From an uncultured Chloroflexia bacterium (GTDB lineage: Bacteria; Chloroflexota; Limnocylindria; Limnocylindrales; CSP1-4): DNA of 64,000 nucleotides. The translations under genes were made by a program, and so were the position numbers. The stretch covers positions 8,141 to 72,140 of the forward strand of contig CAVQJC010000014.1 in assembly GCA_963712745.1 (NCBI GenBank), in the 5' to 3' direction. The notes below the pieces were generated by a model. That model saw only the letters and a list, made by a program, of their open reading frames with translations. It made no database searches and had not been told where the DNA came from. Within the stretch, counting starts at the first letter, position 1, and each line of letters begins with the position of its first letter. Shown here in pieces: positions 5,783 to 53,972 of the stretch.

Positions 5783-6547
5783 ATGACCAGCAACGTGCTC
5801 ATCGAAGGGCGAGACCTGCGCAAGACCTATCAGCTGGGCAAGCGAGCGGCCGTCCCAGCCCTGCGCGGCGTGGACGTCAGCATCGCCGAGGGCGAGATGG
5901 TCGCCATCATGGGCCCCTCCGGCTCGGGCAAGTCCACGCTCATGCACATCCTGGGCCTGCTGCACGCACCGGAGGCCGACGGAGGCCCGCGGCCCGAGCT
6001 GTGGTTCGAGGGTCGGGACATGACCCGCCTGGGCGAGTCCGAGCGCACCCGCATCCGTGCCAAGCGCATGGGCTTCGTGTTCCAGTCGTTCAACCTGGTG
6101 CCCACCCTGACCGCGATGGAGAACGTGGCGCTCGCCTGCGACTATGCCGGCATCAAGGGCACGCCCGCACAGGCGGCGGCCGAACACGCGCTGCGCCTGG
6201 TGGGCCTCGATGACCGGGCCGGCCACCGCCCCGCGGAGCTCTCCGGCGGCGAGCAGCAGCGCATCGCCACCGCGCGTGCCCTGGTCAACCGCCCCTCGCT
6301 CATCCTCGCCGACGAGCCCACCGGCAACCTCGACTCCGTGCGCGCGCGGGAGGTCCTGGGCCTGTTCCGCCGCTTCAACCGCGAGCACGGTCAGACCATC
6401 GTGCTGGTGACGCACGACGCCGAGGTGGGCGACGCCTGCGACCGGGTCGTGCACATGCGTGACGGCCTCGTGGCCGAGCACGGCGCCATCACGCTCCCGC
6501 CGGCGGTCGTGAGCGTGCCCGGGGCGGCCATGCCCACCGCGGCATGA
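5783..6547 (+). CDS. ABC transporter ATP-binding protein (LolD/MacB-like)
   Basis: [32 protein letters not shown]. Confidence 0.95.
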
Positions 6548-7929
6548 GCCTCGCGGAAGGACACGGGCTTGGTGGTAGGGTCGAGATGATGGACCACAGC
6601 GGGGGCGCGCCCACCGGCGCGACGGGCGGGGCGCGGACTCTCTCCTTGCGCTCGTTCCTGCTGTCCCCGCTCGACCCGGCCACCTGGCGGGCGGCCCTGG
6701 CCATCCTCATCGGCGTGGCCGTCACGGGCATCGGCTTCAACGGCCTCTTCATCATCTGGTCCATCGGCGGCTCGCTGCTGGCCGTGCTCATCGGCATCCC
6801 CATCATCGGCTTCGGCATCGAGGCCATGCGCTACGTCGCGCGAGCCGAACGCTGGCGCATGGAGCTGGTCGACGGCGTGCCCGTCCTGGCCCACCCCTAC
6901 CGGCCCATCGACTACTCGCCCAACGCGCCCTACGGCGACTGGCTGAAGCAGTACGCCGAGGGCCAGTTCCTCGATGCCAGCCGCTGGCGCGACGTGGTCT
7001 ACGCGCTCATCGCCTTCCCGCTCGCACTACTCGAGTTCATCCTCGTCCTGGCGCTGTGGGCGGTGGTCCTCGGCCTCGTCATCGGCACCATCACGCTGCT
7101 CAGCGGCGCGGCCGCCACGTACGAGCCGGTTCCGCCCATCGCGCCGGTCGTCACCACGGTCATGGCCCTCGCACTCCTGCCCGTGGCCTCGTTCGTCACC
7201 CGCGGCATGATGGTGGTCCACCGCTCCATCGTGCAGACGCTGCTCTCCGTGGACCCCACCGAGGCCCTGCGCGAAGATGTGGAGCGGCTGCGCGAATCGC
7301 GTTCTGCGGCCATCGAGCTGGAGGCCTCCGAGCTGCGGCGCATCGAGCGCGATCTGCACGACGGCGCCCAGCAGCGGCTGGTGATGCTGGCCCTGGACCT
7401 GGGCCGGGCGGAGGAGAAGATCGACAGCGATCCCGTGGCCGCCAAGCAGCTGGTAGCCGATGCCCGTGAGCAGTCGCGCCTGGCGCTGGCCGAGCTGCGG
7501 GACCTCGTGCGCGGGACGGCACCGTCGATCCTCATCGACCGCGGGCTGGTCGCGGCCGTGGCCTCGATCGCGACCCAGAGCCGGATCGAGACGTTCATCG
7601 ATTCGGGACGCATCGGCGCGCAGCGCTTCAGCCCGGCCGTGGAGCGAGCCGGCTACTTCGCCGCGGCCGAGGCGCTGACCAACGTGGCCAAGCACAGCGG
7701 GGCCAGCCGTGCCGATGTCATCTTCTGGCGAGACACCACTCGCCTCTTCGTGGAGATCTGGGACAACGGCCGCGGTGGCGCCACGCTCACCGGTGAGGGC
7801 GGGCTGGCCGGCCTGCGTGACCGGGTGGCCACCATCGACGGCGCCATCGACGTGGTCAGCCCGCCGGGCGGTCCCACCATGGTGCGCGTGACGTTGCCCG
7901 TGGCGCCACCTCCGGGCCTGCCGCGCTAG
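6544..7929 (+). CDS. Membrane sensor histidine kinase (HisKA_3 type)
   Basis: Four TM segments, ELRRIERDLHDGAQQRL, EALTNVAKHS, DNGRGG. Confidence 0.93.
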   Translation: MSLAEGHGLGGRVEMMDHSGGAPTGATGGARTLSLRSFLLSPLDPATWRAALAILIGVAVTGIGFNGLFIIWSIGGSLLAVLIGIPIIGFGIEAMRYVARAERWRMELVDGVPVLAHPYRPIDYSPNAPYGDWLKQYAEGQFLDASRWRDVVYALIAFPLALLEFILVLALWAVVLGLVIGTITLLSGAAATYEPVPPIAPVVTTVMALALLPVASFVTRGMMVVHRSIVQTLLSVDPTEALREDVERLRESRSAAIELEASELRRIERDLHDGAQQRLVMLALDLGRAEEKIDSDPVAAKQLVADAREQSRLALAELRDLVRGTAPSILIDRGLVAAVASIATQSRIETFIDSGRIGAQRFSPAVERAGYFAAAEALTNVAKHSGASRADVIFWRDTTRLFVEIWDNGRGGATLTGEGGLAGLRDRVATIDGAIDVVSPPGGPTMVRVTLPVAPPPGLPR

Positions 7930-7950
7930 CGAAGGCGCGGATCCCTCCAC

Positions 7951-10419
7951 TCAGACCTGGCCGGCCGGCAGGGCGGTCAGCTGCAGGGGGATGGGCCGCG
8001 GGCTGGGGTGGTCGATGGCCAGCTCCGGCAGGCGCGGCAGGCCGCGCTCATCCTGCTCGTCGGGGGCCGGCGCGGGTGCCTGTGCCACCGGTTCGACCAC
8101 CAGGTTGGTGAGGTCGCGGGGCCGGATGTCGGGTTGCGTCTCCGGCCGCCCCAGCAGGTAGCCCTGGCCCACCGGGATGGCCAGCTGCTGCAGGGCTCGC
8201 AGCTGCTCTGGCGTCTCGACGCCCTCGCCGATGACGACCGAGCCCTGGCGCCAGGCCAGGTCGCGGATCGAGCGCAGCACCGCCCAGGACGCTGCGTGCT
8301 GAGCACCGGACTGGACCAGCGAGAGGTCGATCTTGACGATGTCGAACGGGATCTCGGCAAGCATGCGCAGGCCCGCGCTCCCCGCGCCGACGTCGTCCGC
8401 CGCCAGCCGAAGACCGTACTCGCCCAGGTGGCGGACGTTGTTCGCGAGCCGCTTGATGTCGACGATGGGGTCGCGCTCGGTGAGTTCGAGGATGACGCGC
8501 GAGGGCGAGATCCCGTGCCGGAGCAGGGTGTTGAGCAGCCAGCCCGCGTCGAAGTCCCTGACCTCGAGAGTCTTGGCGGAGAGGTTGATGCTGATGATGT
8601 GATCGGAGCCGATGCCCTTGGCGCCAGCACTGACGGTCTCGAAGCTGGCAAGGTCCAGCTCGACCGTCCGGCCGGTCGCCGCGGCGGCGGCGAACAGGCG
8701 CTCGGGATCGGGGATGGGACCGTCACGCTCGGGGCGGACCAGCCCCTCGAAGCCCAGGACGGCCCCGGTGCGCAGGTCCACGATCGGCTGGTACACCGGC
8801 TTGAACAGCCGTCCGCGGGCGATCTCGTAGACCGCGTTGCCGAGGCCGGCGGGTCCCTGCTTCGTCGGGCAGGCGATCGCGGTCAGGGTCGAAGATCTCG
8901 ACGAACCCGCGCCCGTGGCGCTTGGCCCAGTAGAGCGCGACATCGGCCTGTCGCTGGACCTGGCCGGCCTCGAGAGCGAAGCGCGGTACCGCAGAGATGC
9001 CGCCGGAGAAGGGCGTCGGACGCTCGCCGGTCGGCGGACGCAGGCAGTAGTGCCGCAGGCGACTCGCGGCCTCGGCGGCTTCCTCCGGCTCGGTGTCGGG
9101 CATGAGCACCGCGAACTCGTCGCCGCCGATGCGGAAGAGGCGGTCCGTCGCTCGCAGGGCCTCGCGCATGACCGTGGCCAGGCCGGTCAGGAGGCGATCG
9201 CCCTCGGCGTGCCCCTCCCGGTCGTTCACGACCTTGAGGTTGTCGAGGTCGAGGAGCAGCAGCGCGAACGATGCGCCGTCGCGCTCGGACAGCTGCACCT
9301 GGATGAGCCAGCTCGTCCTGGAAGGCACGGTGGTTGCCCATGCCGGTGAGGCCGTCGTGCAGCGAGTCCTCCCTCGCCTCGCGATAGAGCGTCTCGAGCT
9401 GGTCCTGTGAGTCGCGCAGTTCGCGGAAGGGCGCGATGAGGAGGCGCATGAGCACGAGCACTCCCGATGAGCGCCACGATGCTGACCACGAAGAGCGCCA
9501 GCCAGGTGCCGGTGGTCGCGGGCGATGCCGGCGTGGGCCAGGCCTGGATCATCCCGATACCGGCCGCGGCCACGGTCGGCCAGATGTCGGCCACGCTCGT
9601 CTCCCAACCGACGCGGGCGAGCGCCGCGCCGGTGGCCTCATAGCCCGAGAGGATGCCCTTGGTGTAGATGGCCAGGTCGGCGGGCTGGATGGGCTGTGGG
9701 GCATCCGCCGCGGACGCGCCCGAGCGGCTGGCTCCGGCGACGAGCGTGGAGCTGTCGAGGTCGACCAGGATCGTGGTGGCCGCCGTCCACGGCGTGCGCT
9801 CGAGCAGCGTCTCGAGGTCGATGGCGGCAGAGAGCACGGCCTCGGGACCGCCGCGCCCGGCGATGGGCGTGGCGACGAGCAGCTGTTCGGTCCCGCGCGG
9901 GTGCGAACGCACGATCGTCCCGGTCGACGCCCGGGCCGCAGTGTCGAGCATCGCTCCCTGCGCGCAGGTGGCATTGGGATCCACCACCGCGCGGTCCTCG
10001 GCGATGACGGTCATGCGCCCGTCGGAGACGCGGGCCACGCAGGCGCCGGCCACGATGGACCCGTCGGCGCCTCGAAGGGTGGAGATCGACCGGCGCGCCA
10101 GCTGGCGCGTAGCGCTGCTGCTGGACGATGCGAGACGCGACATGTCCGAGTCGGATGCCAGCGCGGCCAGGCGCACCTCGATGCCCTGGGCGCGCATCAG
10201 CAGGTCGGCCGCAGCGGTAGAGGTCTGCCGAGCACGGGCGGCGGCCAGGGACGTGTCGGGCCCCTGGATGAGGACCGATGCAAGCATGACGCCGACCAGG
10301 GCCGGCACCAGCGCCAGCACGAGCAGTCCGAGCAGGAGACGGCCCTGCATCGCATCGAGCCGCGATCGTCTGCTGTCTACGGTGACGCCGCGCTCGGTAC
10401 GGCTGCGTCGTCGTTCCAT
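7951..10419 (-). CDS. Membrane-anchored GGDEF-EAL c-di-GMP signalling protein (three frameshifts)
   Basis: TM-extracellular-TM region (9226-10419), HDGLTGMGNHRAF (8883-9461), DLDNLKVVND and RIGGDEF (8723-9607), YQPIVDL..FEGLVR, ELTE, DDVGAG and EGVET (7951-8943). Confidence 0.88.
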
Positions 10420-26366: not shown

Positions 26367-26439
26367 GGGCGATCCCTTCCTGCATGATCCGACTGTAGCG
26401 AGATCGATGCCTCGGCTACCCGCTTGACCGCGGGATGGA

Positions 26440-26500
26440 CCCGCCCAGTCGCTGGGGGGACCCGCCCGGTCGCTGGGGGGCTCCGCCCAGGCGTTGGGGG
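26440..26500. repeat. Three degenerate 21-bp tandem repeats
   Basis: ccgcccagtcgctgggggg / ccgcccggtcgctgggggg / ccgcccaggcgttggggg. Confidence 0.7.
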
Positions 26501-29770: not shown

Positions 29771-29800
29771 AAGCCCGGGCGCGCGAGACACCTCGTCCTC

Positions 29801-29860
29801 TTCGCGTGATCCGGCCGGGCTTCGCGTGATCCGGCCGGGCTTCGCGTGATCCGGCCGGGC
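29801..29860. repeat. 3 x 20-bp perfect tandem repeat
   Basis: TTCGCGTGATCCGGCCGGGC three times. Confidence 0.95.
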
Positions 29861-44030: not shown

Positions 44031-45572
44031 CTACCAGATGGGGGTGTTCTGGTCGACCGCACCGAGCCAGGCTGCGACGTCCTGCAGGAAGGCACCCGCC
44101 TGGGCACCGTCGGTGGCCCGGTGATCGATGGCGATGCACATGTTCATCATCGAGCGGACAGCGATGGCGTCGCCCTGGTCCTCCAGCACGACCGGCCGCT
44201 TCACGATCTTCTCCATGGTGATGATGGCGACCTCGGGCACGTTGATGATCGGCAGCGTCAGGATAGAGCCGGTCCAGCCGGTGTTGTCGACGGTGAAGGT
44301 GCCGCCCTCGAGATCCTCCGGCCGAAGCTTCTTGTTGCGGGCCCGCTTGGCCAGGTCGTTGATGGCGGCGTTGAGGCCGTGGAGGCTGAGGTCCTGCGCA
44401 TTCTTGATGACCGGCACCACGAGACCGTCGTCGACGGCTACGGCGATGCCGATGTTGATGGCCTTTCGACGCCAGTGCCCTTCTTCGGTCCAGTGGGCGT
44501 TGAAGTCGGGGAAGCGGCGCAGGGCCTCGACACAGGCCTTGGTCATGTAGGCCACGTAGCTCATCGACATGCCTTCGCGCGACTTGTAGTCGGCATTGAC
44601 GGCAGCGCGGGCCTTGACCACCGGGGTCATGTCGACCTCGATGGTGATGTAGGCAGCCGGCACTTCGACGAAGCGCTGCATGTGCCTGGCGATGGCCTTG
44701 CGCATGGGCGTGAGCTGCTTGAGCGAGTCGCCGTGCTTGACGGGGGAGTCGGTGGGGTCGGCAGCGGGCGGGGCGGGTGCCAGGGCTGGCGCGGGTGTCA
44801 GGGCTGGTGCGGATGCCAGGGCTGGTGCAGGTGCCAGGGCTGGCGCGGGTGCCAGGGCTGGCGCAGGTGCCAGGGCTGGCGCGGGTGCCAGGGCTGGTGC
44901 CCCCGAAGCGGGGGCCGGACCGGAGCCGTTGGTCGCGCCGGCCGAAGCTGCCTCGACGTCAGCGCGGGTGATGCGGCCGCCCATGCCCGAGCCGGCGATG
45001 GCGGTGACGTCCACCCTCAGCTCGCGTGCCAGGCGACGCACGGCCGGGGTCATACGCATGTTGGTGGGGACGACGACAGGGGCCGCTGGGGCGGCGGTGG
45101 CCGGTGCCGTGGTCGGCATGGGGGTCGCGGGGGCCTGGGTCGCTGGTGCCTGGGCCGCAGGTGCGGGGGTCGGCTGTGCCTGGGTCGCTGGTGCCTGGGC
45201 CGCAGGTGCCTGGGCCGCAGGTGCGGGCGGCGGCGGCTCGGCTCCAACGGCCGTAGCGCCGGCCGCCTCGCCCGACGTGCCCGGGGCCGCCGCCGCATCT
45301 GCCGGTTCGGCTGACGCTCCCGGAGCGGCCGTCGCGCCGGCCGCGTCCACCTCGGCGATGGGCGCATCGTTGCCCACGGTGTCGCCCTCGGAGACGAGGA
45401 TCTTGGTGAGGGTGCCCTCGAACGGTGAAGGGACCTCGGCGTTGACCTTGTCGGTCACGACTTCGACCAGTGGGTCGCCCACGCGAACGGGGTCGCCGAC
45501 GGCCTTGAGCCACTTCCCGATGGTGCCCTCTTCGACGCCTTCACCGAGCTGGGGCATGGTCACCTGGGGCAT
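44031..45572 (-). CDS. 2-oxoacid dehydrogenase E2 (dihydrolipoamide acyltransferase)
   Basis: Lipoyl domain (TDKV), E3-binding TPAVRRLA, catalytic DHRATDG. Confidence 0.95.
   Translation of the reverse strand: MPQVTMPQLGEGVEEGTIGKWLKAVGDPVRVGDPLVEVVTDKVNAEVPSPFEGTLTKILVSEGDTVGNDAPIAEVDAAGATAAPGASAEPADAAAAPGTSGEAAGATAVGAEPPPPAPAAQAPAAQAPATQAQPTPAPAAQAPATQAPATPMPTTAPATAAPAAPVVVPTNMRMTPAVRRLARELRVDVTAIAGSGMGGRITRADVEAASAGATNGSGPAPASGAPALAPAPALAPAPALAPAPALAPAPALASAPALTPAPALAPAPPAADPTDSPVKHGDSLKQLTPMRKAIARHMQRFVEVPAAYITIEVDMTPVVKARAAVNADYKSREGMSMSYVAYMTKACVEALRRFPDFNAHWTEEGHWRRKAINIGIAVAVDDGLVVPVIKNAQDLSLHGLNAAINDLAKRARNKKLRPEDLEGGTFTVDNTGWTGSILTLPIINVPEVAIITMEKIVKRPVVLEDQGDAIAVRSMMNMCIAIDHRATDGAQAGAFLQDVAAWLGAVDQNTPIW
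44775..44900 (-). repeat. 7 x 18-bp coding repeat (APAPAL) in the E2 linker
   Basis: cagggctgg every 18 bp from 44781 to 44889. Confidence 0.9.
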
Positions 45573-45656
45573 GAGTCGACTCCTGGGAATTCCGTTCGCT
45601 GGACTGGGATGGGCACTACTCGAGTCAAGGACTCCATGATAGCGACCCCTCCGATT

Positions 45657-45677
45657 CGGACCCTGATACAGGGTCCG
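45657..45677. promoter_or_regulatory. Perfect 9-bp inverted repeat between divergent E2 and HTH gene
   Basis: CGGACCCTG-ata-CAGGGTCCG. Confidence 0.55.
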
Positions 45678-45727
45678 TGAAGTGCCGGGTAACGGCGTGT
45701 GAAGCGAGCATCGGCACCATCGGCGCC

Positions 45728-46456
45728 ATGGACGACGTACGCATCGGCAATACCCTCCGCGTCATCCGCATCCGCAAGCACCTGCGCCAGTGCGACGTCG
45801 CCCGCCGCGCCGGCGTTTCGCGCCAGGTCGTCGGCCGACTCGAGAACGGATACGCGGGCCGATACACGCTCGACACCATCCGCTCGATCGCGAACGCCCT
45901 CGGCGCTCGCTACGACGGACGGCTGCACTACCGGGGCGCCGAGCTCGATCGTATCGTCAACGCCGCCCACGCCGAGCTCCACGAGTCGGTCGCTGCACAC
46001 CTCGAACGCCTGGATGGCTGGACATGGCTGCCCGAGGTGACCTTCGCCCACTACGGCGAACGCGGCATCATCGACATCCTCGCCTGGCATGCGGAGACGC
46101 GTAGCCTCCTCATCATCGAGTTGAAGACCGAGCTGGTCGACCCCCAGGGTCTGGTAGCGGTGATGCATCGTCGTGTTCGCCTCGGTCGCACGGTCGCGCG
46201 ACAGCACGGCTGGGATCCCTCCTCGGTGAGCGCGTGGGTCATCATCCGCGACACCGCCACCGAGCGGCGCCGTGCGAAGAGGCACGCACAGCTGCTTCGC
46301 AAGGCGTTCCCGCACGAGGGTAGGACCGCGCGTGCATGGCTATCGCACCCACGCGGCCGACTCAGCGCTCTGTCCTTCTGGTCAGATGTCACGCCGGGTG
46401 GCGCTAGCAAGGTGCCCGTGCGCACTCAGCGCGTCCGGGTTGCTCATCGGCCCTAG
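45728..46456 (+). CDS. XRE-family HTH protein fused to a PD-(D/E)XK nuclease-like domain
   Basis: LRVIRIRKHLRQCDVARRAGVSRQVVGRLENG; HAELHE...PEV...IDIL...IIELKTEL. Confidence 0.8.
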   Translation: MDDVRIGNTLRVIRIRKHLRQCDVARRAGVSRQVVGRLENGYAGRYTLDTIRSIANALGARYDGRLHYRGAELDRIVNAAHAELHESVAAHLERLDGWTWLPEVTFAHYGERGIIDILAWHAETRSLLIIELKTELVDPQGLVAVMHRRVRLGRTVARQHGWDPSSVSAWVIIRDTATERRRAKRHAQLLRKAFPHEGRTARAWLSHPRGRLSALSFWSDVTPGGASKVPVRTQRVRVAHRP

Positions 46457-46572
46457 ACCCCGCAGGAGCCAAGCGTGACCGGACATGTCGGAGATCGCTG
46501 TTGACGTGCCCTGGCCGACGGGGCGGCCGACCATCTGGCTAGGGCCACCGAGGATGACATCTGACTAGATGG
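46374..46572. repeat. 41-bp imperfect inverted repeat overlapping the 3' end of the HTH-nuclease gene
   Basis: 46374-46414 matches the reverse complement of 46532-46572 at 32 of 41 positions without gaps; perfect core GTCAGATGTCA. Confidence 0.8.
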
Positions 46573-46590
46573 CGGCGAGGCCGCCAGCGC

Positions 46591-46690
46591 GGGCCTGTCG
46601 CCAGCGGCCGAGGCCTGTCGCCAGCGGCCGAGGCCTGTCGCCAGCGGCCGAGGCCTGTCGCCAGCGGCCGAGGCCTGTCGCCAGCGGCCG
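46591..46690. repeat. 5 x 20-bp tandem repeat
   Basis: (A/G)GGCCTGTCGCCAGCGGCCG five times. Confidence 0.95.
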
Positions 46691-46718
46691 CGCGCAGCCG
46701 CGCCCCACGGCCGCGGAG

Positions 46719-48152
46719 CTAGAAGTTGATGGACTTGCCGTCGACGGCCATGGCCGCCTCGCCCATCGTCTCGGAGAGCGTGGGGTGCGGGTGGACGGCA
46801 GAGCCGACCTCCCAGGCGGTGGCCTCGAGCAGCATAGCCGTGGAGGACTCGGCGATGAGCTCGGTGACCTGATGGCCGATCATGTGCACGCCCAGCAGCT
46901 CGTCGGTCTCGGCGTCGGCGATGACCTTGACGAAACCGGTGGTGTCGCCCTCGATGATGGCCTTGCCCGACGCCATCATCGGCATCTTGCCGACCTTGGT
47001 CTTGAGGCCGCGCTCCGCGCACTGCTCGGAGGTGAGGCCGATCGAGGCCACCTGCGGCCGCGAGTACGTCGCTCGCGGCATCTTCACGTAGTCGATCTCC
47101 TCGACCTCGAGCCCGGCGATGGCGTGCACCGCGGCGATGCCCTCGTGCGTGGCCACGTGCGCGAGCCACAATCCGCCGGCGATGTCGCCCACGGCATACA
47201 AGTGCGGGTCGGCGGTGCGCATCTCCGCGTCGGTCTGGACGATGCCGCGGTCCACCACCGCACGCGTCGTCTCGAGACCGATGTCCTCGACATTGGCAGC
47301 TCGACCTGTGGCAACCAGCATCTGCTCGGCACGCAGCTCGGCCGGCTCGGCGCCCTCGGGGCCAACCATCAGCGACACGCCCGAGTCGTCTGCCTTGACC
47401 GCTCCCGTGTCGAAGCGCGCCGAGGTGATGACCTTGATGCCGCGCTTCTTGAAGGCGCGCGCCATCTCCCTCTGGATCTCACCGTCTTCGAGCGGCACCA
47501 AGCCCGGCAGATACTCGAGCACGGTGACCTCGGCACCCATGTCGTGGTAGTAGGAGGCGAACTCGACACCCACCGCACCGGCGCCCACGACGATGATCGA
47601 CTCGGGCATATGCGAGGAGCGGAGCACGTCGTCGGACGTAACGATGCGCTCGCCATCCGGCACCAGCCCCGGCAGCGATTTGACCCGCGAGCCGGTGGCC
47701 ACGATCACGTCCGTGGCCTTGAGGATGGTCTCGCCGGTCGACTTGCCCTCGCTGTCGGTCGTCTTCACCCGGACCTGCTGCGGGCCTTCGAGCCGGCCGC
47801 GGCCGACGATGTACTCGACCTTGTTCTTCTTGGCCAGACTGGTCACGCCCTTCACCAGGCGCGAGACGATCCGGTCGCGCCGCTTGGCGATGGCCTCAGG
47901 GTCGGCCGATACGTCGGCGGCCGAGATGCCGAACTCGGTCGAGTGCTTCATGTGGTCGAGCAAGTCGGCCGAAGCGAGCATGGCCTTGGTCGGGATACAG
48001 CCGATGTGCAGGCAGGTGCCTCCGAGGCCCATGGGGTTGTCGTCCACGAGGGCGACCTTGAGCCCCAGCTGGCCGGCGCGGAACGCGGCGCCGTAGCCGC
48101 CGGTGCCGCCGCCGAGGACGACGATGTCGAAGGACTGGGTTTCGTTGGGCAC
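46719..48152 (-). CDS. lpdA: Dihydrolipoyl dehydrogenase (E3)
   Basis: GGGTGG, GGTCLHIGCIPTK, GAGAVG, HPHPTLSE; GTG start at 48152. Confidence 0.96.
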   Translation of the reverse strand: MPNETQSFDIVVLGGGTGGYGAAFRAGQLGLKVALVDDNPMGLGGTCLHIGCIPTKAMLASADLLDHMKHSTEFGISAADVSADPEAIAKRRDRIVSRLVKGVTSLAKKNKVEYIVGRGRLEGPQQVRVKTTDSEGKSTGETILKATDVIVATGSRVKSLPGLVPDGERIVTSDDVLRSSHMPESIIVVGAGAVGVEFASYYHDMGAEVTVLEYLPGLVPLEDGEIQREMARAFKKRGIKVITSARFDTGAVKADDSGVSLMVGPEGAEPAELRAEQMLVATGRAANVEDIGLETTRAVVDRGIVQTDAEMRTADPHLYAVGDIAGGLWLAHVATHEGIAAVHAIAGLEVEEIDYVKMPRATYSRPQVASIGLTSEQCAERGLKTKVGKMPMMASGKAIIEGDTTGFVKVIADAETDELLGVHMIGHQVTELIAESSTAMLLEATAWEVGSAVHPHPTLSETMGEAAMAVDGKSINF

Positions 48153-48205
48153 GGTGGACCTCGGAAGAACGTGATTCGGACGGGTGCGATGGTAGCAAAG
48201 CACCC

Positions 48206-48502
48206 GCATCGCGCTCGCTTCAGACCGGCGCCACACCTGCATCGCGCTCGCTTCAGACCGGCGCCACACCTGCATCGCACTCGCTTCAGACCGGCGCCAC
48301 ACCTGCATCGCGCTCGCTTCAGGCCGGCGCCACACCTGCATCGCGCTCGCTTCAGACCGGCGCCACACCTGCATCGCACTCGCTTCAGACCGGCGCCACA
48401 CCTGCATCGCACTCGCTTCAGACCGGCGCCACACCTGCATCGCACTCGCTTCAGACCGGCGCCACACCTGCATCGCACTCGCTTCAGACCGGCGCCACAC
48501 CC
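48206..48502. repeat. 9 x 33-bp tandem array (VNTR, no spacers)
   Basis: GCATCGC(G/A)CTCGCTTCAG(A/G)CCGGCGCCACACCT starting at 48206, 48239 ... 48470. Confidence 0.97.
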
Positions 48503-50214: not shown

Positions 50215-51139
50215 TCAGCTCGATGGTAGGCGCACCGACCCATCGGCGGAGCGTTCCACGAGTCCATCGCGCTCCAGTGCGATGAGCGCAGCGCAGGATC
50301 TCCTCCTCGCCATGCGTCCCCATGGCCGATGGCAGCTGCTCCCAGGCGCCGTCATCGAGGGAGCGCAGGTGCTCGACGATGCGGCCACGGAGCCAGCGCG
50401 TCGTACGCTCGAAGGGGACCTGTTCCGAATCGGAGTGGCGCCCGGGCGTCTCGACCCGTCCGGCGCTGGCACACCAGTCGCTCACCGGGCACTCCTCACA
50501 GCGCGGGCGCCGGGAGACGCAGACGGTGGCGCCGAGTTCCATCGAGGCCTGCGTCCAGGTGGCTGGGTCGCCGAGGTCGACCAGCCCATCGGCCTCGGCT
50601 TGCAGTTGGCGTACGCTCATCGACAGCCCGAGCACACGCGAGACCACGCGACGAACGTTCGTGTCCACCGCCGCCACCGGCTGCCCGAAGGCGATGGCCG
50701 CGACCGCCCTGGCGGTGTACGGGCCGACCCCGGCCAATCCTTGCAGCGCAGCGAGGTCAGGTGGGACTCTCCCGTCGTGGTCGGCCTCGATAGCCGCGGC
50801 GGCACGCTGCAGGTTCACTGCCCGGCGGTTGTAGCCCAGTCCGGCCCAGGCCCGCAGCACCTCGGCGGTCGAGGCCGCGGCCAGCGCGCGCGGCGATGGG
50901 TAGCGCGCCATGAACTCGTACCAGGCCTCGTCGACCCGCGCGATCTGCGTCTGCTGGGCCATGACCTCCGAGACGAGGATGGCCCACGGATCGCGCGTTG
51001 AGCGGATGCGGAGCGGCCTCGCTCGCGGTCCGTACCATGCCAGCAAGGCTCTCTGGAAGCGCCGGCGGCGGGTGCCACGAAGCGACCCGAACCACCCGCT
51101 ACCAGGACCATCTGCACCTGAACGTGTCGATTCCTTCAT
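50215..51139 (-). CDS. mutY: A/G-specific adenine glycosylase (frameshift near 50290)
   Basis: VSEVMAQQT, WAGLGYNRRA, GVGPYTA, VDTNVRRV, C-x6-C-x2-C-x5-C. Confidence 0.9.
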
Positions 51140-51185
51140 CTCCGGTATACCCACTTTCGCCGAAGGTCGGGCACAATGCCCAGGA

Positions 51186-53972
<2,787 letters not shown>

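Follow-up and report, generated by a model that had tools for sequence, protein, structure and literature searches.

XRE-type proteins with a predicted PD-(D/E)XK fold and a conserved inverted repeat at the 3' end of their genes in Limnocylindria

The DNA analysed here, called the window throughout, is a stretch of 64,000 nucleotides of contig CAVQJC010000014.1 (assembly GCA_963712745.1) from an uncultured bacterium of the Limnocylindria (Chloroflexota). Between two genes of a dehydrogenase cluster, it carries a gene encoding a 242-aa protein, P0001, that joins an XRE helix-turn-helix (HTH) to a domain predicted to adopt the PD-(D/E)XK nuclease fold, and an inverted repeat surrounds the end of this gene (Table 1). 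A preliminary description, made from the sequence alone, had already reported the 242-aa gene, its XRE HTH and its E...D...ELK motif between lpdA and E2, and the open reading frame (ORF) list, Pfam and the alignment of homologues agree with it. The ORF extends from 45677 to 46456 on the plus strand and is read from the ATG at 45728. The E2 gene (44031..45572, minus strand), whose product has lipoyl, E3-binding and 2-oxoacid_dh domains according to Pfam, and lpdA, which starts at 46719 on the minus strand and encodes Pyr_redox_2 and Pyr_redox_dim domains, are co-oriented. The P0001 gene lies between them on the opposite strand, divergent from E2 and convergent with lpdA. The wider neighbours encode a rhodanese, a PNPOx-like protein, lipoyl synthase, PlsY, YjeF_N, an HhH-GPD glycosylase and an ABC substrate-binding protein. 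A scan of these seven genes reveals no transposase, methylase, recombinase or antitoxin, so that the absence of a nearby transposase, methylase or antitoxin noted in the preliminary description holds.

Table 1. Features of the P0001 locus (positions in the window)
Feature	Coordinates	Strand	Basis or remark
Gene of P0001, XRE-HTH + PD-(D/E)XK-fold protein (fold predicted)	45728..46456	+	ORF list, domain scan, model
XRE/Cro-C1 HTH, residues 6-60	45743..45907	+	Pfam HTH_31, HTH_3, HTH_26 above cut-offs
Predicted PD-(D/E)XK-fold domain, residues ~70-218, with E103, D116 and E131-L-K133	45935..46381	+	AF2, Foldseek, alignment
Three operator-like boxes at 11-nt spacing: GAAGT (45679), TAACG (45690, degenerate), GAAGC (45701)	45677..45706	+	Read from sequence
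-10-like hexamer CACCAT, 7 nt before ATG	45715..45720	+	Family NAnnnT pattern; start inferred
Left arm, codons 216-229 of 242: block 1 TGGTCAGATGTC, block 2 GGTGGCGCTAGC	46374..46414	+	Repeat search, family alignments
Stop-proximal box CAAGCGTGA, in the loop between the arms	46470..46478	+	Family motif NRAGCGTG
Right arm, intergenic	46532..46572	+	Kept in 12/12 context-A loci, co-varies with left arm
9-bp stem with 3-nt loop, E2/XRE divergent intergenic region	45657..45677	.	Inverted-repeat search; window-specific
Tandem array, 20 bp x 4.9, 100% matches	46592..46690	.	Period 20; minisatellite

By its sequence, P0001 is a member of the XRE/Cro-C1 HTH family, three Pfam models scoring above their cut-offs: HTH_31 (35.5 bits for a cut-off of 27, E 1.2e-8, residues 6-60), HTH_3 (33.5 bits, cut-off 23) and HTH_26 (30.3 bits, cut-off 22). 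The HTH matches HigA, the 434 repressor and C.AhdI by profile against the Protein Data Bank (PDB), and HipB, ClgR and C.AhdI by structure with Foldseek. As modelled, the C-terminal domain of this resident protein belongs to the PD-(D/E)XK superfamily at the level of the fold. AlphaFold2 (AF2) models reach a pLDDT (predicted local distance difference test) of 85.9 for the whole protein and of 86.2 for residues 66-242 alone, with a predicted template-modelling (TM) score, pTM, of 0.79. Their core has the order alpha-beta-beta-beta-alpha-beta (helix 70-93, strands 98-105, 114-121 and 126-133, helix 139-159, strand 167-174), with D116 on the second strand and E131-L-K133 on the third. Searched with Foldseek, the domain model retrieves the R2 restriction-like endonuclease (RLE), Can2/Card1, EndoMS/NucS, Shedu SduA, bunyavirus cap-snatching endonucleases and PfoI, which we take to be nucleases of the PD-(D/E)XK superfamily. 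These matches have E-values from 8e-4 to about 4e-2 and query TM-scores of 0.30-0.44, and ranks 1 to 24 are all nucleases except one unannotated structure. E103, D116, E131 and K133 are invariant in the 26 aligned homologues (26/26), and again in an alignment of the C-terminal domain; many Trp, His and Arg residues are likewise invariant in the 26 sequences. With this acidic/lysine motif intact, the domain may be catalytically active. The preliminary description had proposed a PD-(D/E)XK nuclease from the motif, and both the fold and the motif are present in the AF2 models, with nucleases as their structural neighbours.

At the sequence level, a profile of the C-terminal domain finds no relative in the PDB at E <= 10, a search of the ESM Atlas with this domain returns the family's own members alone, and the nuclease matches in Pfam, NCBIfam and PADLOC are all sub-threshold (for instance, YhcG_C with E 0.11 and YraN with E 0.048). 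The best PADLOC matches of the domain are PDC-S02 models with E of at least 0.02, and those below 0.01 all lie in the HTH (residues 2-67). The last ~16 residues are disordered in the model and carry a conserved RRVR-type motif.

P0001 belongs to a large, uncharacterised family with many paralogues, found mainly in Limnocylindria. A word-index search recovers 610 proteins at E <= 0.001 among 2311 candidates, and an exhaustive profile search 660 representative clusters (50% identity) at E <= 1e-30. The names given by the sources, where there are any, are 'XRE-family transcriptional regulator' or 'hypothetical protein', and no description of this family was found in the literature searched, which included a passage from the reference list of PMC2701414. 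A genome scan matched 507 stretches, 466 of which encode relatives; the best 80 were kept as loci (numbered with the prefix L), nearly all of them from metagenome-assembled genomes (MAGs) of Chloroflexota/Limnocylindria.

The window's neighbour genes were compared with these 80 loci by tblastn. All of the 12 closest loci (56-74% identity; context A) have lipA-E2 upstream in the same orientation, and 11 of them have lpdA downstream, adjacent in eight and 2.4-3 kb away in three (L009, L010 and L080); in L008, no lpdA is found within the 6-kb flank. None of the window's neighbours is detected in the other 68 loci (44-54% identity). These have recurrent contexts of their own: (i) between a thiolase/aldehyde dehydrogenase and acyl-CoA dehydrogenase/HADH/MeaB, (ii) between a glyoxalase-like gene and HPPD, adjoining FAH, or (iii) upstream of a class II ribonucleotide reductase (nrdJ). 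Further members are found beside genes for ROK proteins or substrate-binding proteins, transketolase (tkt), AmtB, DnaB or a protein of the alpha-amylase family. In a quick IQ-TREE tree of 80 rows, context A forms a single clade (SH-aLRT 96), and the five context labels can be mapped on it with 7 changes, where shuffled labels need 35.2 (0/200 shuffles as low). Moreover, the 64-kb window holds neither a second copy of the gene nor a copy of the arm sequence beyond the two arms. Since the 12 closest loci are syntenic, the clades track the context and the neighbours are housekeeping genes, the gene is considered as resident and not mobile. Sequence comparison thus describes the family as old paralogues that are fixed in place and vertically inherited, and not as a jumping element. 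The preliminary description had suggested a compact selfish element, to be given up if the gene proved syntenic in relatives; with lipA-E2 in 12/12 and lpdA in 11/12 of the closest loci, this suggestion is not supported.

Some members of the family deserve separate mention. Two are apparently broken: one at 6001-6660 of L080, which is matched in two different frames and stops at 219 aa, and one at 6001-6447 of L024, which ends at 148 aa; these are either pseudogenes or assembly errors. Three members from contigs binned as Steroidobacteraceae, Methylomirabilota and Sulfotelmatobacter (L029, L060 and L068) nest inside Limnocylindria clades, and mis-binning is more likely than gene transfer. In L009, the region between the XRE gene and lpdA (6785-9220) contains an ORF of 526 aa with, judged by eye, a serine-hydrolase-like S-x-x-K motif.

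As for the inverted repeat, a search for repeats finds two 50-nt arms, 46374-46423 and 46523-46572, that are 74% complementary and separated by 99 nt; their best 41-nt core, 46374-46414 / 46532-46572, corresponds to the 41-bp repeat that had been reported beforehand with its left arm in the last codons. On both strands, the repeat region gives a more stable fold than 200/200 shuffles (z -3.4 and -3.9). In the family, the left arm begins with the Phe-Trp codons, which belong to the conserved last beta-strand (ALSFW), extends over about 35 nt and occupies the same codons in every paralogue clade. The right arm is found 40-220 nt beyond the stop codon. The repeat is bipartite: two matching blocks are separated by a spacer of about 8 nt, whose length is kept and whose sequence has diverged.

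The preliminary description had advised a look at the DNA downstream of each homologue and at covariation, and both kinds of data now speak for the repeat. Each left arm was compared with the reverse-complemented downstream DNA of its own locus and of the other loci; 77 of 81 sequences were scored, two without the motif and two with too little downstream DNA being excluded. The own-locus score exceeds the 99th percentile of the cross-locus scores in 28/77 loci and the 95th in 39/77. Among orthologues, the own-locus mean is 27.7, compared with 19.4 for other loci. All context-A loci (12/12) have retained the right arm in the midst of DNA that is not conserved in the alignment. In this alignment of 12 orthologues, 72.1% of 419 cells are paired, compared with 65.2% in shuffles (0/500 as high), and shifting the partner by 1-3 columns lowers the pairing to 27-41%. 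Two-sided changes occur in 15/35 pairs, and the covariation score, obtained by pair counting, is 0.238 versus 0.131 (0/500 shuffles as high). For instance, columns 35-251 form GC in six sequences, CG in five and UA in one, and are unpaired in none of the 12.

Furthermore, the left arm leaves a trace in codon usage. The mean GC content at third codon positions (GC3) of 79 coding sequences of the family is 0.815; only six codon columns fall below 0.6, and five of these belong to the left arm (codon 219, 0.23; 220, 0.42; 222, 0.55; 226, 0.16; 229, 0.39). Therefore, A/T bases (CA-GAT ... T-AG) are held family-wide against the codon bias. The generic core motif is found inverted downstream of the gene in 25/77 loci and in sense orientation in 6/77, for 1.8% of 4506 background windows. 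Various loci have more than two copies of the arm. In seven genomes, the nrdJ-linked clade has five copies: besides the one in the gene, there is a forward copy and there are three reverse copies, spaced by 50-52 bp. L073 has two forward and three reverse copies (6756-6968), L022 one forward and two reverse (6758-6931), and L070 three right arms within a perfect 50-bp x 3 tandem (6095-6245); extra right-arm copies occur in tandem in L001, L005, L022, L070 and L073. We conclude from these comparisons that the 3' inverted repeat is conserved, associated with the gene and selected at the nucleotide level.

Three other explanations of the repeat were considered and rejected. A small gene or pseudogene on the minus strand behind the right arm had been considered as the arm differences of L007 looked synonymous; stops within the arm (in the window, L068, L071 and L076) and the lack of a conserved feature in 37 loci speak against it. 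An inversion that would swap the C-terminal tail would give an RRVR-type motif in only 1/37 alternative tails. In the window, an overlapping +1-frame ORF opens with an ATG of block 1 and closes with the TGA that the stop box contains; this ATG is not conserved in orthologues, and the box changes register.

A second set of motifs lies upstream of the gene. A hexamer NAnnnT ends 6-8 nt before the start codon in 74/80 loci, and a Shine-Dalgarno (SD)-like motif is present in only 6/80. Because the hexamer is so close to the start codon and SD-like motifs are so rare, the data argue for leaderless mRNAs in this family, the transcription start being deduced from the sequence. Upstream of the hexamer are two to six direct boxes of the T(A/G)AGC type with a period of 11 nt, the last of which starts at -26 in 33/80 loci. 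GATAAG is found in 21/80 upstream regions and in 0/570 background windows, and TAAGCG in 20/80 and 1/570, respectively. We infer that the HTH binds these promoter boxes.

Similar boxes are located at the other end of the gene. The motif NRAGCGTG is found between the RRVR codons and position +200 in 37/77 loci, when a rough estimate from composition gives about three, and it starts 83-85 nt after the Phe codon in 26/36 loci. In these 26, the box supplies the stop codon in ten cases, ends in the stop in five and is read through in another register in eleven. Its position is thus independent of the frame, which makes the box a signal of the nucleotide sequence rather than of the protein. In the subclade of the window (the window itself, L001 and L004), it lies at 94 nt, and it is repeated at 10-11 nt in L008, L036 and L062. 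A matrix built on the promoter boxes gives 31 hits in two bins around the stop box, 3.85 being expected per bin. Two other roles of this box were rejected. YRAGCGTGR is in excess in the window (20 occurrences for 7.3 expected), which could have made it a genome-wide signal of gene ends; the 19 other occurrences are not associated with gene ends, no fewer than 16 of them being located within called ORFs, and this excess is probably an effect of codon usage. Furthermore, no -10-like hexamer follows the stop box at the spacing of the promoter, which dismisses a second promoter there.

Starting from what is observed, that is, the gene, the fold of its product in the models, its synteny, the geometry of the motifs, the constraint on nucleotides and the co-variation of the arms, we tentatively propose that P0001 is an autoregulated DNA-binding protein whose own predicted sites bracket its gene. 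The cis-architecture that the family members share has three parts: (i) a leaderless-type promoter overlapped by 2-6 T(A/G)AGC boxes in 11-bp phase, (ii) at or beside the stop codon, 1-3 like boxes whose distance to the Phe-Trp codons is constant, and (iii) at least two copies of a bipartite site of ~35 bp, the first in codons ~217-229 and the others inverted 40-220 bp after the stop. The HTH of P0001 would bind the phased boxes and repress its own leaderless promoter. As an oligomer, the protein would also occupy the boxes of the gene end and the bipartite sites, giving a second nucleoprotein complex that would seal the gene off from its neighbours, either by looping or as a roadblock. This complex would be located between the gene and the convergent lpdA in the window, and upstream of nrdJ in one paralogue clade. 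The nuclease-fold domain may read the bipartite site and dimerise on it, or may cut or nick there.

Sites in duplex DNA are favoured for three reasons: the spacing of the blocks is kept in both arms while the spacer sequence has diverged, the A/T core bases are conserved family-wide, and the five copies of the nrdJ-linked loci cannot all pair at once. In addition, extra right-arm copies stand in tandem in five loci, G:U cells are not enriched on the plus strand (18 G:U versus 29 A.C, the latter being G:U on the other strand), and the types of mismatch across 39 loci look compositional. Several points weigh against this proposal. Two-sided changes that preserve the complementarity of the arms are classically the mark of a base-paired helix; with protein sites, such co-variation would need co-evolving specificity or concerted evolution. 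The window has only two copies of the arm. The promoter-box matrix is low in information and also matches conserved codons inside the gene. Lastly, the invariant E/D/E-x-K motif suggests a working enzyme, for which a pure repressor would have no use.

The main alternative, close to the structured 3' RNA mentioned in the preliminary description, is that the arms pair as RNA, either in the mRNA of the gene itself or in antisense read-through from the convergent neighbour. An interrupted helix of ~35 bp enclosing the stop codon would then end, stabilise or process the transcript, and might be coupled to translation since ribosomes must melt the left arm. Complementarity maintained by double changes, as in columns 35-251, is what such a helix predicts, and so are the better match of each arm with its own locus (28/77 above the 99th percentile; 27.7 versus 19.4), the stability of the fold on both strands relative to 200/200 shuffles and the convergent orientation of the downstream gene, seen in contexts A, C and D as well as in three other loci. 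However, the G:U counts (18 versus 29) reveal no strand-specific excess, neither a U-tract terminator nor an Rfam family is detected, and the loop would be 100-250 nt long. Moreover, the internal loop is strictly symmetric in length despite its diverged sequence, arrays of five copies at 50-52-bp spacing cannot all pair, and a plain helix does not need family-wide A/T core bases. We therefore regard a transcript hairpin as somewhat less likely than DNA sites bound by the protein, towards which we lean slightly.

It is unlikely that the repeat has no specific function, being an old quasi-palindrome kept by template switching or gene conversion and acting at most as a generic bidirectional terminator beside minisatellites. 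Arrays are indeed common (30/77 loci within 400 nt downstream, with unrelated units, and others in the window), and inverted repeats between convergent genes are ordinary. Nevertheless, conversion would homogenise the 8-nt spacer, yet this is the most divergent part of the repeat. The left arm keeps to the same codons in every paralogue clade, rare codons ending in A/T are retained family-wide and the distance of the stop-proximal box is fixed whatever the frame; furthermore, the downstream gene is co-directional in four contexts.

It would be equally speculative to see the locus as a self-contained module made of a gene and its site. An HTH-guided PD-(D/E)XK enzyme would have a bipartite target, contained in the final codons of its gene and mirrored downstream, where it would nick, cut or clamp a hairpin or loop. 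It would thereby form a protein-controlled gate between transcription units, and many paralogous gates would stand beside core genes (E2/lpdA, nrdJ, dnaB, tkt, beta-oxidation and tyrosine-catabolism clusters) across Limnocylindria.

Least probable of all is a selfish or self-acting nuclease that cuts, nicks or recombines its mirrored sites for homing, inversion or excision of the stop-codon segment: although the catalytic-type motif is intact in all aligned homologues, the sites adjoin the gene and partly lie inside it, the gene is antisense between co-oriented housekeeping genes in three contexts and members stand beside many core genes (including nrdJ, dnaB, tkt and amtB), the gene is syntenic with clades that track context, it is not flanked as a whole by repeats, near-identical paralogues were not observed, copies of the arm are not scattered over the 64-kb window, no locus is in inverted orientation, the tail that an inversion would make has no conserved feature (RRVR-like in 1/37) and no recombinase, transposase or methylase is encoded by the flanking genes scanned.

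The preliminary description had considered that the locus is not one of the named insertion sequence (IS), toxin-antitoxin (TA) or CRISPR (clustered regularly interspaced short palindromic repeats) classes, and comparison with each of these bears it out. Contrary to an IS, a transposon or a miniature inverted-repeat transposable element (MITE), the locus carries both arms at the 3' end of the gene, has no additional gene or arm copies in the window and keeps a fixed position in 12/12 loci. No small partner gene of a type II TA system is present, the neighbours being the divergent E2 and the convergent lpdA; the NCBIfam antitoxin models match the HTH only, with 38 bits for a cut-off of 71.65. 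Restriction-modification (R-M) systems with a C protein would include a methyltransferase, and none is found among the seven flanking genes scanned. The 20-bp units of the downstream array follow each other head to tail without spacers, which is not the organization of a CRISPR array. No intrinsic terminator site is predicted between 45400 and 46900 on either strand, scans for consensus promoters and terminators are empty, and the sole match in Rfam is a sub-threshold microRNA (miRNA) model (22.9 bits versus 100). As for invertons, inverted repeats are present, but there is no nearby recombinase and, since the native tail is read in all 77 loci aligned, no locus appears flipped.

By analogy, the system appears to work most like an XRE autoregulator of the CI type with distant operator sets. 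As in lambda and 434, an XRE HTH is associated with repeated boxes over its own promoter and with a second set of sites beyond the gene, and the mRNA is apparently leaderless; the cI transcript that lambda makes from PRM has no leader, and looping joins OR and OL in lambda. In contrast to the CI type, the boxes of the family are direct repeats at 11 bp and not palindromes, one site lies in the coding sequence, the C-terminal domain has a nuclease fold instead of a CI dimerisation/peptidase domain, and there is no prophage context. C proteins of R-M systems and their C-boxes share with P0001 the XRE HTH and the autoregulation, here proposed, via promoter boxes of their own. The closest solved HTH structures include C.AhdI and C.BclI, and the PADLOC model Control_protein matches with E 3e-4. 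However, neither a methyltransferase nor a separate endonuclease gene is close to the P0001 gene, which is syntenic in housekeeping clusters. ParB-parS offers another parallel, the parS site lying within the parB/spo0J coding sequence: in both cases the cis site of the protein is inside its own gene, and gene and site are co-inherited. Here, there is no ParB fold or CTPase, the bipartite sites are mirrored around the stop codon and each lineage has many paralogues.

For the C-terminal domain, the likeness to NucS/EndoMS, Can2/Card1, Shedu SduA and the R2 RLE is at the fold level only and consists of the core fold and of the D...(D/E)xK arrangement; the partner domain is an XRE HTH instead of a CARF, PCNA-binding or reverse-transcriptase module. 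For the repeat, intragenic invertons and shufflons also have an inverted repeat around the 3' end of a gene with one arm in the coding sequence, but no invertase and no flipped locus is found here, and the flipped reading has no conserved feature. Palindromes of the repetitive extragenic palindromic (REP) type, bacterial interspersed mosaic elements (BIME) or MITE-like sequences are mirrored repeats between convergent genes too, sometimes multiplied in tandem; the arm described here is not dispersed in the 64 kb, and one copy is coding, at the same codons in all paralogues.

Limnocylindria are abundant uncultured bacteria from soil and freshwater and, to our knowledge, almost nothing is known of their gene regulation. 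The family, which occupies several conserved chromosomal positions, offers a cleanly defined type of promoter, leaderless with boxes in 11-bp phase. It also offers a rare and well-supported case of a non-coding signal superimposed on codons, with the family-wide collapse of GC3 at five codons. Should the mirrored sites prove to be targets of the protein itself, the system would represent a novel manner of coupling a regulator or a nuclease to its locus. Otherwise, the analysis upgrades the annotation of hundreds of proteins that are labelled only as XRE family regulators.

Two other repeats that had been included in the preliminary description are present in the window and do not belong to the conserved unit. 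The 9-bp hairpin upstream of the gene is perfect, its arms CGGACCCTG (45657-45665) and CAGGGTCCG (45669-45677) being complementary at 9/9 positions. No equivalent stem is found in 10/12 orthologous loci, and the stems of L004 and L006 are located elsewhere and have other sequences. The array that had been described as five 20-bp units has 4.9 copies and begins 20 nt past the right arm. In context A, arrays are found in eight of the 12 loci and are lacking in four, and the units of the downstream arrays of the relatives are unrelated (16, 17, 18, 20, 24, 28, 31, 47, 54 or 68 bp); in L001, L005 and L070, the unit includes the right arm itself. We read the 20-bp array as an intergenic minisatellite typical of the lineage.

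Other arrays are found in the window at 29800-29860 (20 bp x 3.0, 100%) and 26437-26500 (21 bp x 3.0, 86%), and the fetched loci contain 234 arrays in 849 kb, which suggests that minisatellites are a genome-wide trait of the lineage. The divergent gap between the starts of lpdA and plsY is filled by a 33-bp x 9.1 array with 97% matches (48201-48501), which opens a long upstream extension of the lpdA ORF and reads as MQVWRRSEASA repeats. In those orthologous loci where plsY gives one complete match, the tblastn coordinates place lpdA and plsY only ~25-160 nt apart, and the array therefore looks like an expansion specific to the window. Within the E2 gene, repeats at 44773-44897 (18 bp) and 45122-45234 (15/30/60 bp) encode Ala/Pro-rich linkers between domains, and such repeat-coded linkers are ordinary in E2 proteins. 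Lastly, triplet-type GCA/AGC repeats at 53803-53908 encode the Ser/Asn-rich C-terminal tail of a large ORF (50910..53972) that, judged by eye, resembles a penicillin-binding protein.

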